Positions 53,141-58,167 of a stretch of 64,000 nt of DNA are shown here, in pieces; position 1 is the stretch's first letter, and every line of letters starts with the position of its first letter. Both the position numbers and the translations under genes were made by a program. The notes below the pieces were generated by a model. That model saw only the letters and a list, made by a program, of their open reading frames with translations. It did not search any database and was not told the DNA's origin. The stretch is from a plasmid, in NCBI RefSeq assembly GCF_056712565.1, contig NZ_JBWXXM010000002.1. The stretch is one strand, 5' to 3'.

Positions 53141-53960
53141 GGCACTGTTGCAAAGTTAGCGATGAGGCAGCCTTTTGTCTTATTCAAAGGCCTTACATTT
53201 CAAAAACTCTGCTTACCAGGCGCATTTCGCCCAGGGGATCACCATAATAAAATGCTGAGGCCTGGCCTTTGCGTAGTGCACGCATCACCTCAATACCTTT
53301 GATGGTGGCGTAAGCCGTCTTCATGGATTTAAATCCCAGCGTGGCGCCGATTATCCGTTTCAGTTTGCCATGATCGCATTCAATCACGTTGTTCCGGTAC
53401 TTAATCTGTCGGTGTTCAACGTCAGACGGGCACCGGCCTTCGCGTTTGAGCAGAGCAAGCGCGCGACCATAGGCGGGCGCTTTATCCGTGTTGATGAATC
53501 GCGGGATCTGCCACTTCTTCACGTTGTTGAGGATTTTACCCAGAAACCGGTATGCAGCTTTGCTGTTACGACGGGAGGAGAGATAAAAATCGACAGTGCG
53601 GCCCCGGCTGTCGACGGCCCGGTACAGATACGCCCAGCGGCCATTGACCTTCACGTAGGTTTCATCCATGTGCCACGGGCAAAGATCGGAAGGGTTACGC
53701 CAGTACCAGCGCAGCCGTTTTTCCATTTCAGGCGCATAACGCTGAACCCAGCGGTAAATCGTGGAGTGATCGACATTCACTCCGCGTTCAGCCAGCATCT
53801 CCTGCAGCTCACGGTAACTGATGCCGTATTTGCAGTACCAGCGTACGGCCCACAGAATGATGTCACGCTGAAAATGCCGGCCTTTGAATGGGTTCATGTG
53901 CAGCTCCATCAGCAAAAGGGGATGATAAGTTTATCACCACCGACTATTTGCAACAGTGCC
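53141..53960 (-). mobile_element. IS26 copy 1 (820 bp)
   Basis: 14-bp terminal IRs GGCACTGTTGCAAA at both ends; flanking 8-mers differ (no TSD). Confidence 0.9.
53193..53897 (-). CDS. IS26 transposase
   Basis: 234 aa from [21 protein letters not shown]... Confidence 0.9.
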   Translation of the reverse strand: MNPFKGRHFQRDIILWAVRWYCKYGISYRELQEMLAERGVNVDHSTIYRWVQRYAPEMEKRLRWYWRNPSDLCPWHMDETYVKVNGRWAYLYRAVDSRGRTVDFYLSSRRNSKAAYRFLGKILNNVKKWQIPRFINTDKAPAYGRALALLKREGRCPSDVEHRQIKYRNNVIECDHGKLKRIIGATLGFKSMKTAYATIKGIEVMRALRKGQASAFYYGDPLGEMRLVSRVFEM

Positions 53961-54162
53961 ACAGAAAATTACCTGAACTGCGTCAACTCGGAGTCTGGCC
54001 GCGTGCGCGTGGAAGCAAAGCGGGCGAGCGAAGAATACGGGCGAGTGCTGCGGCGCTATCCGCTGAAACCCGGCGAGACGGTCGAGCGTCCGCAACGCGG
54101 GGAAGTCGTCAGCAGCTCCGGGGTTCTCCCCCCACTGGACCCAGGCGAATACTAAGCGCGGC

Positions 54163-54690
54163 GGTGTGTAATAGACGGAGCGCGAGGCGACTACTGGTCA
54201 GGGTTTGCGCAAGGCGGGTGTGTAATAGACGGGAGGGGATCGATCCGGCGATCCAGCCTGTGGATAGTCCGTCTATTACCCACCCGGTTCCGTCGTTTAC
54301 CCACCCAACCCCGTCTATTACCCACCGGAAACCGTCTATTACCCACCGAGGGGTTCTATAAGCAACTGATAATGAAGGTAAATTTTGCCTTCTGATTCCC
54401 TAAAACTCTTTAAAACAAAAAAAACATATATAAAACGTGTAGCCCTGGGGAAAACAGCCCGTGGAATTATGGACAATCCGGCAAGCCGGATACCTGCCTA
54501 ACCGCTTCGCGGTTCCCCATTGACAGGCCAGGGACAACCGCGAGCGGTTGCCCCCACCCTGCCAACAGGTCGGCAGTTGCCCACAATACCACCGGCTCAA
54601 GCAACAGGATTTTTTTATATTTTTGTTTTTAAAAGAAAAAAGCGGCCGTGCTCTAGTGGCATGGCCGCGTTACGTGGTCCTATCAGGGGC
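54163..54690. other. oriV-like module: iteron array, GC-rich palindromes, 32-bp AT-rich tract, further palindrome
   Basis: Four direct CCGTCTATTACCCACC-like 16-mers at exact 21-bp period (54269, 54290, 54311, 54332) plus two inverted copies (54163-54178, 54217-54232); AT tract 54610-54641; palindrome GCGGCCGTGCTCTAGTGGCATGGCCGC. Confidence 0.5.
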
Positions 54691-54770
54691 TTGTGGCTCT
54701 TGCGCCTCCTCGGATCGACACAAGTGCCGATCACTGCGGCGGGGCGCTCCTGGCTCAAGCTGAAAAGCGA

Positions 54771-55106
54771 TCAGTATCCGCACCAGTGGCGACGGCGTTC
54801 CCTCCACGCATTCGGGCCGGGCCTCCACTCAACGGCTAACCCCTCGGCCATGAGGGTTTGCCCCACGTCCCGCCCGTCGATCAGCAGGTGAACAAGGCGG
54901 CGGTCGTACTTGTCGGCTTGGCCGGAATCGACAACCTCGATGCGCTGAGCGTTGGCAACCAGTTCGCGGAGGCGTGCGGTTGCCTCGCGGCCCTTCGTCA
55001 GCTCGGCGTCGCACCTGGGCTTGTAGGTTTCCGGGGTGTCAATCGACAGCAGGCGCAAGCGTTGACCGTTGTATCGTAACCGTCCGGTGATTCCACCTTG
55101 AGCCAA
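54771..55106 (-). CDS. Thermonuclease (SNase-like) family protein, possibly N-terminally truncated
   Basis: ORF 111 aa with LLSIDTPE motif. Confidence 0.4.
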   Translation of the reverse strand: MAQGGITGRLRYNGQRLRLLSIDTPETYKPRCDAELTKGREATARLRELVANAQRIEVVDSGQADKYDRRLVHLLIDGRDVGQTLMAEGLAVEWRPGPNAWRERRRHWCGY

Positions 55107-55139
55107 ATCGCCTGCCGACCAAAAGGCTCGAAGCTTACC

Positions 55140-55228
55140 ACCCGGTCGATTCCGGTCAGATCCAGAAACGCCTCGTCGATGGAGTAGACATCCACTCTCG
55201 ATGCCAGAGCTTCCAGGGTCGTCATCAC
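55140..55228 (-). pseudogene. Short fragment of a umuC/mucB-type Y-family polymerase gene
   Basis: ...LEALASRVDVYSIDEAFLDLTGIDR matches the conserved UmuC SIDEAF region; homology ends abruptly. Confidence 0.4.
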
Positions 55229-55489
55229 CCGCCGGCTTATATCGCCATTTGTGTGGAATAGAGAATCAATTGGAACGGGGGCTTTGCTCGCCCCCCCTTG
55301 AACTTCTCATACCCAACCTGTTTGGCTATAGCTACTGAGGAGATCGCGGTGGCCCACCAAATCTTCCGGTCATCCTGTTCAATTACACCGCTAGCCGTAC
55401 CCAGGAGGTGCCGCAGCGCCTCCTGGAGGCAGAAAGGCGTCGAGCGTATAGGTTGCTGGGCATGCGCGGCGCAAGTTCATCAGAAAACT

Positions 55490-55900
55490 CAATCCAAGGG
55501 CAAGATCGGCCGAGCGGAGATGGCACTGACTCTTATCAACAAGCTCTACGGCATCGAGCGCGACATGGAAGAGGCGGGCGATGCCCAGCGATACCAGACG
55601 CGCCAGTCGCAAAGCCAGGCTTTCCTGGAGCAACTGAAAGCTAGGCTGGACAAAACCCCTCCCCAGGTCACGTCGTCAAAGTGCCTTGGGCAAGCAATCA
55701 ATTGCCTTGCGAGCAACTGGTTAAAGCTGATCCGCTACATCGAAAGGGGGACACCTGCCCATCGACAACAACCCTGCCGAGCGGGCGAGCCACCTTCTCA
55801 TGTACATATGACCAAAGCGTCGCCCGTCTCCTCCCGTTATGTCATGCCTACCCACGACGGAGTATTGACGGTCTCTGTGCGCCAGAGCATAGTTTTCCCG
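55490..55900 (+). pseudogene. Frameshifted fragment of an IS66-family transposase gene
   Basis: KLYGIERDMEEAG... and LPIDNNPAERA in two frames parallel the C-terminal region of the intact IS66 transposase. Confidence 0.5.
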
Positions 55901-55976
55901 AAGGGCGCTTAGGTACATATCTTCATGTGCTGTCCAGGCGCAGTTGCGTTTAGAGTACGTGTCCAATCAGTTTTAA

Positions 55977-56351
55977 ATGGGTGTGAACATGAGAGCAGAA
56001 ACTGAATCGCGGATTTTTTCGGTGGATGAATATGTTCGTCCGTCTAACGGCGAACCGATTCGTTCGGTTGTTCTGGAAACCAATGACTCTGTCGTCGTTG
56101 TTTGGCACGCCCACCCTGGGCAGGAAATAGCTTCCCATGTACATCCTCACGGCCAAGATACTTGGACGGTTATCTCAGGTGAAGCCGAATATCATCAAGG
56201 TAACGGCATAGTCACTCATCTTAAAGCTGGAGATATTGCGATCGCAAAACCTGGGCAGGTACATGGTGCAATGAACTCTGGCCCCGAACCTTTTATATTT
56301 GTTTCAGTGGTTGCGCCGGGCAATGCCGGTTTTGCGTTGGCTGAGAAATAG
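55977..56351 (+). CDS. Cupin-domain protein (124 aa)
   Basis: His-rich cupin-like motifs (HAHPGQEIASHVHPHGQD ... GQVHGAMN). Confidence 0.55.
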   Translation: MGVNMRAETESRIFSVDEYVRPSNGEPIRSVVLETNDSVVVVWHAHPGQEIASHVHPHGQDTWTVISGEAEYHQGNGIVTHLKAGDIAIAKPGQVHGAMNSGPEPFIFVSVVAPGNAGFALAEK

Positions 56352-56391
56352 GCGAAAGGCCTGAGAGGAAACTGATGAATACACGATTATT

Positions 56392-57211
56392 GGCACTGTT
56401 GCAAAGTTAGCGATGAGGCAGCCTTTTGTCTTATTCAAAGGCCTTACATTTCAAAAACTCTGCTTACCAGGCGCATTTCGCCCAGGGGATCACCATAATA
56501 AAATGCTGAGGCCTGGCCTTTGCGTAGTGCACGCATCACCTCAATACCTTTGATGGTGGCGTAAGCCGTCTTCATGGATTTAAATCCCAGCGTGGCGCCG
56601 ATTATCCGTTTCAGTTTGCCATGATCGCATTCAATCACGTTGTTCCGGTACTTAATCTGTCGGTGTTCAACGTCAGACGGGCACCGGCCTTCGCGTTTGA
56701 GCAGAGCAAGCGCGCGACCATAGGCGGGCGCTTTATCCGTGTTGATGAATCGCGGGATCTGCCACTTCTTCACGTTGTTGAGGATTTTACCCAGAAACCG
56801 GTATGCAGCTTTGCTGTTACGACGGGAGGAGAGATAAAAATCGACAGTGCGGCCCCGGCTGTCGACGGCCCGGTACAGATACGCCCAGCGGCCATTGACC
56901 TTCACGTAGGTTTCATCCATGTGCCACGGGCAAAGATCGGAAGGGTTACGCCAGTACCAGCGCAGCCGTTTTTCCATTTCAGGCGCATAACGCTGAACCC
57001 AGCGGTAAATCGTGGAGTGATCGACATTCACTCCGCGTTCAGCCAGCATCTCCTGCAGCTCACGGTAACTGATGCCGTATTTGCAGTACCAGCGTACGGC
57101 CCACAGAATGATGTCACGCTGAAAATGCCGGCCTTTGAATGGGTTCATGTGCAGCTCCATCAGCAAAAGGGGATGATAAGTTTATCACCACCGACTATTT
57201 GCAACAGTGCC
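56392..57211 (-). mobile_element. IS26 copy 2 (820 bp), same orientation as copy 1
   Basis: 14-bp IRs at both ends; flanking 8-mers differ. Confidence 0.9.
56444..57148 (-). CDS. IS26 transposase
   Basis: Protein identical to copy 1. Confidence 0.9.
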
Positions 57212-58167
57212 ATATTTCCAATAACCCATTAAGTCAATCCCTCTACACTGGGCGCACCGATGAGTTTGGCCAAATAGAGTTTGCTTTACGAATGATGCAA
57301 GCTGAAACAGGCGCCATAGTAGGTCGCATAGGTGATGCATCAAATCGGCTTAGCGAACACACCCGAGGCCTACTAAAGGATATTGAGTCAAGCAATGTAC
57401 TTACAGTTGAGCAGCAGGCAGAGACAGATCAAATAGCAACGGCAGTAAACCAAATGGTGGCAAGCATTCAAGAGGTTGCGAGCAATGCACAGCATGCTGC
57501 AGATGCGGCCGGAAGAGCAGACACTGAGACGGCATCTGGCCAGCGTCTGGTAGCCCACACAAGCCAGTCAATCACTGCCCTTGAAGGTGAAATTAGGCAA
57601 GCCACTCAGGTTATTCATGAGCTTGAAGGTCAAAGTAACGAGATATCAAAAGTTCTTGACGTTATACGAGGGATCGCCGAGCAAACGAATTTGTTGGCAC
57701 TCAACGCAGCAATTGAGGCCGCGCGTGCTGGTGAGCAGGGGCGTGGTTTTGCTGTTGTCGCCGATGAGGTTCGCAGTCTTGCTGCTCGCACACAGCAATC
57801 GACAACGGATATTCAAAGCATGATCAGCGCTCTACAAGAGCGAGCGCAATCCGCTGTTACAGTCATGGAGCAAAGTAGTCGGCAAGCGCACACGAGTGTA
57901 GCTCACGCAGAGGAAGCAGCTACAGCTCTTGATGGAATTGGCCAACGCGTTAACGAAATTACCGACATGAACGCGCAAATAGCGACTGCGGTCGAGCAGC
58001 AGGGAGCAGTAAGTGAAGACATAAACCGCAGTATTATCAATATACGCGATGCTGCTGATACCAATGTACAGACCGGGCAGAATAATTTGCAAAGTGCGAA
58101 ATCTGTCGCTCAGTTAACTAGCGCTCTGAGCGAACTGGCAAAACAGTTTTGGGAAAAACGAGGATAA
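57212..58167 (+). pseudogene. 5'-truncated methyl-accepting chemotaxis protein-like gene (Tn1721 orfI/mcp), cut by IS26
   Basis: C-terminal MCP signalling-domain sequence (...[35 protein letters not shown]...); reading frame starts inside IS26. Confidence 0.7.

Follow-up and report, generated by a model that had tools for sequence, protein, structure and literature searches.

Identity of the iteron array

The window analyzed here is a 64,000-nucleotide stretch of a plasmid (NCBI RefSeq assembly GCF_056712565.1, contig NZ_JBWXXM010000002.1); its positions 53961–56391 form a mosaic of 2,431 bp enclosed by two copies of the insertion sequence IS26 (Table 1). We conclude that positions 54157–54440 of this mosaic are very probably an orphan origin of replication (oriV) of the iteron type found in the pSN1216-29 group and in other replicons with an RPA-family RepA initiator, that is, an inert relic that is carried passively by IS26. 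The proposed origin is made up of a pair of inverted iterons, a DnaA box, a set of four direct iterons spaced two helical turns apart, and an AT-rich region that would serve in unwinding. The initiator gene, repA, would have been lost before IS26 captured this DNA or at capture, and the origin would now be a passenger in a mosaic that comprises the remnant of a small open reading frame (ORF), the oriV, a module of the type found in PromA plasmids, a truncated nuclease gene (nuc), fragments of umuC and of an IS66 transposase gene, a cupin gene, and the start of a chlorite dismutase gene (cld). The mosaic, in turn, would be the left part of an IS26-cld-IS26 unit that was shortened by the right-hand IS26. 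Lacking RepA, the origin would not be expected to fire; its movement would be solely by IS26 cointegration or translocatable-unit formation or by recombination between IS26 copies.

The direct 16-mers of the array start at positions 54269, 54290, 54311, and 54332, that is, with an exact 21-bp period; three of the four read CCGTCTATTACCCACC and the other reads CCGTCGTTTACCCACC. Allowing up to three mismatches, the iteron motif occurs six times in the 64 kb, each time in the array (0.41 occurrences expected; 0 of 100 shuffles reach six). The four direct and two upstream inverted repeats that had been noted in a first-pass annotation of this DNA are thus present, with the period given there, and are not random.

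The oriV of pSN1216-29 contains four tandem CCGTC(T/C)(A/T)TTACCCAC repeats, three DnaA boxes, and a 35-bp AT-rich region, and is located downstream of repA (PMC6232296). Miniplasmids of pSN1216-29 replicate in E. coli only when repA and all of the oriV elements are retained; loss of two of the four repeats, or of the AT-rich tract alone, abolished the replication of a repA-containing miniplasmid (PMC6232296). Three of the four iterons in the window are identical to pSN1216-29 iterons and match the consensus CCGTC(T/C)(A/T)TTACCCAC exactly.

Using positions 54100–54720 as the query in a BLASTN search (word size 11) of 72,556 plasmids, 540 records were matched; among the matches listed are identical copies of the unit, RPA-type origins, and PromA plasmids. 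The iteron part of the query (54217–54347) matches plasmids of ~35–37 kb as well as several Burkholderia and Xanthomonas plasmids. The identity is ~80% over these 131 bp for plasmids of the pSN1216-29 group and 79–82% over 54254–54348 for replicons from B. cenocepacia, X. citri, Gellertiella, Acidiphilium, and Acidocella. The comparison with plasmid origins that the first-pass annotation had proposed therefore returns clear similarity to a known origin, that of the pSN1216-29/RPA type.

We then aligned six origins, that is, those of the window, pSN1216-29, a B. cenocepacia plasmid, X. citri pXAS24, and contigs from Acidiphilium and Gluconacetobacter. In this alignment, the same columns hold the inverted iteron, the DnaA box, the four direct iterons, and the AT-rich motif CTAAAACTCTTTAAAAC; CTAAAAC(T)C(T)TTAAAAC also keeps its register, and the TGTGGAT of the DnaA box is invariant in all six sequences. 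The pattern TGTGGATAGNCCGTCNATTACCCACC, which joins the DnaA box to an iteron, identifies five more such origins in 100,044 GTDB species genomes; all five are in Alphaproteobacteria and in RPA replicons. In 10 of 10 relatives, the homologous array lies directly 3′ of a gene for the PF10134 "replication initiator protein A" (E 1.2e-62 for the Pfam RPA domain), and the distance from the end of repA to the DnaA box is 50–80 bp in all ten (tblastn). The sequence of the iterons, the abutting DnaA box, and the type of the neighboring initiator place the array in the pSN1216-29/RPA-RepA group rather than in IncQ; on these sequence comparisons, we assign it to this known and widely distributed type of origin. 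The claim of an iteron-type plasmid origin is thereby upheld, in that the array has homology to an oriV in which deletions showed the iterons and the AT-rich region to be necessary for replication.

The members of the pSN1216-29 group (pKPN-704, pEC743_4, pJHX613, pMH0621-12, and the second replicon of pSRC119-A/C) have in common with the window the iteron core, the four copies at 21 bp, the upstream pair of inverted copies, a DnaA box that abuts iteron 1, and the AT-rich tract downstream; the window differs from them in that it lacks repA and in that its AT-rich tract is nearer to the Xanthomonas/Burkholderia version. The other RPA-RepA replicons (pXAS24, the 22.9-kb B. cenocepacia plasmid, and the Gluconacetobacter, Acidiphilium, Acidocella, and Gellertiella contigs) share with the window the arrangement TGTGGATAG-N-CCGTC-N-ATTACCCACC, four phased iterons, and the AT-rich motif CTAAAACTCTTTAAAAC; they differ from it in having repA adjacent and a single inverted iteron, which holds the repA stop codon. 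In the alignment, the second inverted iteron is common to the window and the pSN1216-29 type only. The RepA proteins of pSN1216-29 and pXAS24 are 68% identical and yet are associated with the same iteron core; this provides a precedent for cross-function between a RepA and related oriVs.

As a side observation, in the B. cenocepacia (L010:3595-4440) and X. citri (L011:2640-2990) origins, several hundred bp of GC-rich DNA come after the AT-rich tract; this DNA is packed with short hairpins having TTCG/TACG-like loops and is unrelated in sequence to the PromA-type element described below. Such a field of GC-rich hairpins beyond the unwinding region may be common to the RPA-type origin family in general.

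Absence of the cognate initiator

In the relatives, the stop codon of repA is located inside the first inverted iteron (GGT GTG TAA), and the homology of the window to these relatives begins within about 10 bp of the same iteron. No similarity to RepA was found in any frame of positions 53961–54180 (BLASTP, tblastn), and no RPA RepA was found anywhere in the 64-kb window. The 200 bp upstream of the array code for the last 64 residues of a small, unrelated protein in a frame that differs from that of repA; the possibility that this ORF (53961–54155) is the 3′ end of repA was ruled out by BLASTP and by tblastn in all frames. Because the sequence upstream of the first inverted iteron is the remnant of an unrelated gene, the initiator would have been lost before or at the IS26 capture.

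The complete 39.9-kb plasmid pF829-3 contains the same IS26-segment-IS26 block, with two homopolymer indels as the only differences. No RPA homologue was found in pF829-3; its sole initiator is of the RepB family. A search for a donor of the origin (PLSDB at the DNA and protein levels, a search of 5.8 billion proteins, and a scan of GTDB) identified a nearest origin that is about 82% identical. As judged from its sequence and setting, the array is an orphan origin of the pSN1216-29/RPA type, not a complete replicon. The first-pass annotation had linked its proposal both to similarity with a known origin and to a Rep protein able to bind the repeats: the similarity was found, whereas neither the window nor pF829-3 encodes a cognate Rep.

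The 64-residue fragment has no match to a Pfam family. Its sole homologue outside the unit is an ORF of 120 amino acids (L006:2839-3201) in Leisingera/Phaeobacter plasmids (52% identity over 42 amino acids); in the 5.8-billion-protein search, it matched solely copies of the same IS26-bounded unit. The Leisingera/Phaeobacter ORF sits between repC and a thermonuclease gene; the window, too, has a thermonuclease fragment, ~600 bp downstream of the 64-residue ORF and on the opposite strand.

The IS26-cld-IS26 unit and its distribution

The two IS26 copies are 820 bp each, identical, and in the same orientation, and the 64-kb window contains no further IS26. The description of the segment as bounded by directly repeated IS26 copies is therefore accurate, and the IS26-segment-IS26 block is also found in unrelated plasmid backbones. 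At least 445 plasmids in PLSDB, most of which come from Klebsiella, carry the 2,431-bp segment with 100% identity. In most of these carriers, the sequence runs past position 56391 into a 564-bp cld gene and ~1.3 kb of additional DNA before the next IS26; for example, this longer form has an inner length of 4,327 bp in record L004 (6415–8327 beyond the segment).

An IS26-cld-IS26 unit has been described in IncF-type plasmids of Klebsiella (PMC7319535), and a pair of cupin and cld-like genes has been described on an "IS26 composite", the cupin being the usual partner of mobile cld-like genes (PMC3735179). The left IS26 junction of the unit is identical to that in the window, and colinearity at 100% identity extends from 53961 up to the start codon of cld; the two differ in that the right IS26 of the window removes all but 17 bp of cld and roughly 1.3 kb beyond. 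By this colinearity, the segment in the window is a truncated derivative of the IS26-cld-IS26 unit. The short form with the right-hand junction of the window is rare, with about 12–15 plasmids that are mostly from livestock E. coli (mainly pigs and poultry). The block with both junctions identical is present in the IncX-like pF829-3 and about 12–15 other plasmids; the carriers are typed as IncX-like, IncR, IncF, and IncHI2-like, and the left side of the unit is bounded by IS26 in every case examined.

For the flanks in the window, the matches are to IncHI2-type plasmids with the typing IncHI2A/rep_cluster_1088, and for the surrounding DNA they are to IncHI2-type plasmids that carry tet(A) and blaTEM-1. 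The outer flank of the left IS26 (52824–53140) is the 3′ end of a Tn3-family transposase gene, encoding the C-terminus, that is interrupted by IS26; the outer flank of the right IS26 (57212–58167) is a fragment of a methyl-accepting chemotaxis protein (MCP) gene with HAMP and MCP signaling domains. No 8-bp target-site duplication was found around the block in the window (flanks GCGCGCCT and ATATTTCC) or in records L019, L004, and L005; such a duplication is not needed for the conservative or recombinational routes of IS26. The lack of duplications together with the unrelated flanks points away from classical compound transposition and fits movement by IS26 cointegrates and translocatable units or by recombination between IS26 copies.

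We found no mention of an origin within the IS26-cld unit in PMC7319535, PMC3735179, or other searchable literature, and no literature that links IS26, cupin/cld, and iterons. The origin family, the behavior of IS26, and the IS26-cld unit are already known; the presence of an orphan origin in the unit appears to be unreported.

Alternative explanations

Several observations weigh against an orphan origin of the pSN1216-29/RPA type. No replicon that combines an origin matching at >90% with repA was found in PLSDB, in the GTDB species genomes, or in the protein search. The 64-kb window is part of a larger IncHI2-like plasmid, so a Rep elsewhere on the molecule is excluded by analogy only. One of the iterons has a G at position 6, which is outside the published consensus (iterons of the X. 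citri type share that G). Finally, one DnaA box is conserved in the window as compared with three in pSN1216-29.

A first alternative is that the orphan array is active in trans, that is, that it causes incompatibility or exclusion by titration or handcuffing of RepA or that it allows satellite replication of the 3.25-kb circle formed by the IS26 translocatable unit. Given the identity of three of the four iterons to those of pSN1216-29, the RepA of a co-resident plasmid of this group would be expected to bind the array; by analogy with related systems, binding could plausibly lead to titration or handcuffing (incompatibility) or to initiation in trans. Klebsiella, E. coli, Citrobacter, and Pseudomonas are clinical hosts that plasmids of the pSN1216-29 group share with the unit. 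The formation of an oriV-containing circle is mechanistically possible in that the two IS26 copies are identical and in direct orientation. A study of PromA plasmids showed that a RepA provided in trans supports the replication of cloned heterologous oriVs that have conserved iterons, even when the RepA proteins are <80% identical, and its authors infer incompatibility from this replication (PMC10327500). Nevertheless, we consider a role in trans unlikely: there is no sign of selection, the 100% identity across plasmids reflecting recent spread with IS26, and two of the three pSN1216-29 DnaA boxes are missing in the window. The unit is absent from 30 of 30 records with a full-length match to a pSN1216-29-type origin, as would be expected by chance alone (expected overlap <1).

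It is very improbable that the array is instead a working or secondary origin of its host plasmid that is served by an unrecognized initiator encoded elsewhere. The core of the origin does look intact (iterons, DnaA box, and AT-rich tract); however, the block is found in IncX-like, IncR, IncF, and IncHI2-like backbones, each of which has its own replicon typing and none of which is typed to the pSN1216-29 cluster, the complete pF829-3 lacks an RPA homologue, and IS26 invariably borders the left side of the block.

The proposal that the repeats are a partition centromere or an operator array is scarcely credible: phased short repeats with inverted copies are also found in centromere-like sites, but deletion of two of the four repeats or of the AT-rich tract abolished replication of the pSN1216-29 miniplasmid (PMC6232296). 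Moreover, the conserved DnaA box and AT-rich tract are features of origins.

We give almost no weight to an IncQ-type oriV (iterons, GC-rich and AT-rich stretches, and palindromic single-strand initiation sites, with RepA/RepB′/RepC), of which the first-pass annotation had been reminded by a superficially similar order of repeats, GC-rich palindromes, AT tract, and palindrome: the oriV of the IncQ plasmid RSF1010 is also iteron-based with AT- and GC-rich tracts, but it differs in iteron sequence and initiator family, no IncQ plasmid or origin is among the matches listed from the 540 records, the homologues of the array all adjoin an RPA-family repA (PF10134), both the GC-rich palindromes and the AT tract have their homologues in a PromA module located far from the PromA oriV, and the window has a DnaA box abutting iteron 1 whereas IncQ initiation is independent of DnaA. 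The preferred explanation is, then, an inert orphan oriV of the pSN1216-29/RPA-RepA type.

A structured element of the PromA type

The GC-rich palindromes (54470–54560), the AT tract (54609–54641), and the longer palindrome (54642–54670) that had first been read as parts of the origin are all present; however, they are assigned to a PromA-type module and to a putative terminator of the nuclease gene, not to the origin. The conserved AT-rich region of the origin family is a different tract, at about 54398–54437, directly after the iterons; the A+T content is 80% over 54400–54439. Positions 54461–54586 match PromA plasmids (BLASTN) separately from the iteron part, and similarity to the metagenomic contigs L025 and L026 covers 54461–54639 (81% over 185 bp); because the similarity in these two contigs extends through the 33-nt AT tract, this tract belongs to the PromA-type module. 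No sigma-70 promoter was called in the AT tract by a promoter scan. The long palindrome is followed on the minus strand by a T-run (TTTTTTCTTTT) and is located about 100 nt after the nuclease stop codon; from its predicted fold, it resembles an intrinsic terminator for the nuclease gene, which is on the minus strand. A simple terminator scan did not call the palindrome at 54642–54670 because its stem has an internal mismatch.

The element at 54451–54600 is about 85% identical to sequences in pIPO2, pSFA231, pTer331, and metagenomic PromA-like contigs; in pSB102, the long hairpin is deleted. A scan of metagenomes identified the element in seven more contigs. Outside the window, copies are at L003:3991-4143, L012:7855-8008 (pSFA231), and L018:1496-1605 and in L020–L026. 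Folded as single-stranded DNA, the minus strand of 54455–54600 has a predicted energy of −47.2 kcal/mol (z −7.0), as compared with −35.2 kcal/mol (z −5.7) for the plus strand. The pSFA231 element folds alike, with a long closing stem and three hairpins; the predicted three-hairpin architecture of the PromA intergenic element (pIPO2, pSFA231, pTer331, and pSB102) is the same as that in the window.

Covariation was counted for the pairs of a structure that we specified, using nine related sequences from which that structure was partly derived and whose relatedness inflates the statistics: 97% of the alignment cells form a standard pair (at most 44% in a control with slid partners), and seven pairs have changes on both sides as compared with 2.0 ± 0.9 in shuffles (0 of 500 reach seven). 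The stems are conserved; the loops vary in sequence and length. G·T pairs number 44 on the minus strand and one on the complement, and with a covariance model the minus strand reaches 132 bits, as compared with a partial match of 19.9 bits for the plus strand. An Rfam scan of both strands of the segment gave no match at E ≤ 1, and a search with the covariance model identified no copy of the element beside RPA-type origins or elsewhere in the window.

The contexts of the element differ: in PromA plasmids it is far from oriV and the origin of transfer (oriT), and in the window it lies between an unrelated oriV and a nuclease gene. In pSFA231, the element (at 7.9 kb) separates the virB1/tra operon from a block of small ORFs that runs leftward, and the four PromA iterons are in the ssb-kfrA gap at 36.2 kb. 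A role as part of the PromA oriV or oriT was ruled out by the position of these iterons and by the location of oriT at the mobC promoter. The minus strand of pSFA231 also contains an unannotated ORF of ~100 codons (MTHQSQIQKQ...; L012:7007-7309) ~550 nt downstream of the element and on the same strand; this ORF would be the first gene of the leftward block.

There are three candidate functions for the element: it may be a signal for single-strand initiation, the structured 5′ leader of the small-ORF operon of PromA plasmids, or a cluster of operator palindromes (AACCGC-N3-GCGGTT occurs twice in the element). The strand asymmetry and the long-range covariation argue against a site that is purely double-stranded and bound by protein. 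The structured element is the less expected item as compared with the orphan origin, and it is a separate lead. We regard as decidedly unlikely two further readings, one being that the orphan origin is active in trans (by incompatibility, or as satellite circles when RepA is provided) and the other that the 150-nt element represents an undescribed class of plasmid single-strand elements, either a priming signal or an RNA leader.

The AT-rich tract of the oriV (54406–54435) and the second AT tract (54613–54635) are imperfect inverted repeats (83–88% complementary) that bracket the PromA-type element, and the region 54395–54645 folds at −56.9 kcal/mol (z −7.1). The inverted arrangement could be a chance similarity between low-complexity tracts or a trace of insertion of the module.

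Remaining features of the segment

The remainder of the segment consists largely of gene fragments, as the first-pass annotation had stated: Pfam matches support the SNase, IS66 transposase, and cupin assignments, and that of umuC rests on nucleotide similarity. The SNase fragment aligns to residues 45–112 of a plasmid thermonuclease of 154 amino acids. The match of the umuC fragment to the IMS family is weak (E 0.006, below the Pfam cut-off); its nucleotide identity to annotated umuC genes is 71–76%. The IS66 fragment corresponds to a RefSeq pseudogene in pF829-3.

Table 1. Features of the IS26-bounded segment and its borders (window coordinates).
Feature	Coordinates	Strand	Basis or remark
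IS26, left copy	53141–53960	−	Transposase on minus strand; terminal inverted repeats GGCACTGTTGCAAA at both ends; identical to right copy
Remnant of small gene, 3′ end, 64 codons, cut by IS26	53961–54155	+	ORF list
Two inverted iterons GGTGTGTAATAGACGG	54163–54178, 54217–54232	−	Repeat search
DnaA box TGTGGATAG abutting iteron 1	54259–54267	−	8/9 match to TTATCCACA
Four direct iterons, 21-bp period	54269–54347	+	Fit the pSN1216-29 consensus; in register across six replicons
Family-conserved AT-rich region CTAAAACTCTTTAAAAC..., ~80% A+T, likely unwinding element	about 54398–54437	n/a	Six-way alignment
150-nt structured element, three hairpins and long closing stem	54451–54600	−	Common to PromA plasmids
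33-nt AT tract	54609–54641	−	Homologous to DNA just upstream of the structured element in PromA-like contigs
Hairpin GCGGCCATGCC...GCACGGCCGC, then TTTTTTCTTTT on minus strand	54642–54670	−	Terminator-like
Thermonuclease (SNase) gene without N-terminal ~30–45 codons	54771–55106	−	PF00565, E 1.7e-10
umuC (Y-family polymerase), internal fragment	55139–55277	−	Weak IMS Pfam match and nucleotide identity
IS66-family transposase fragment, frameshifted, both ends missing	55298–55912	+	PF03050, E 1.9e-15
Cupin-2 gene, intact, 124 amino acids	55977–56351	+	PF07883, E 2.1e-13
Chlorite dismutase (cld) gene, first 17 bp, cut by IS26	56375–56391	+	Coordinates mapped from record L004
IS26, right copy	56392–57211	−	Identical to left copy

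Significance

Hundreds of sequenced resistance plasmids carry the block with its non-coding part unannotated, and sequence-based finders of replicons and origins may flag the orphan array. Its recognition as a pSN1216-29-type origin without an initiator guards against mistaking the block for a working or an IncQ-like replicon; the finding of an orphan origin in the IS26 unit is thus useful for annotation and is of modest, specialist interest. The structured element provides a small, separate lead on the non-coding biology of the PromA plasmids. A further prediction is that the orphan array interacts, through incompatibility or trans-activation, with the broad-host-range plasmids of a group circulating in the same clinical species.

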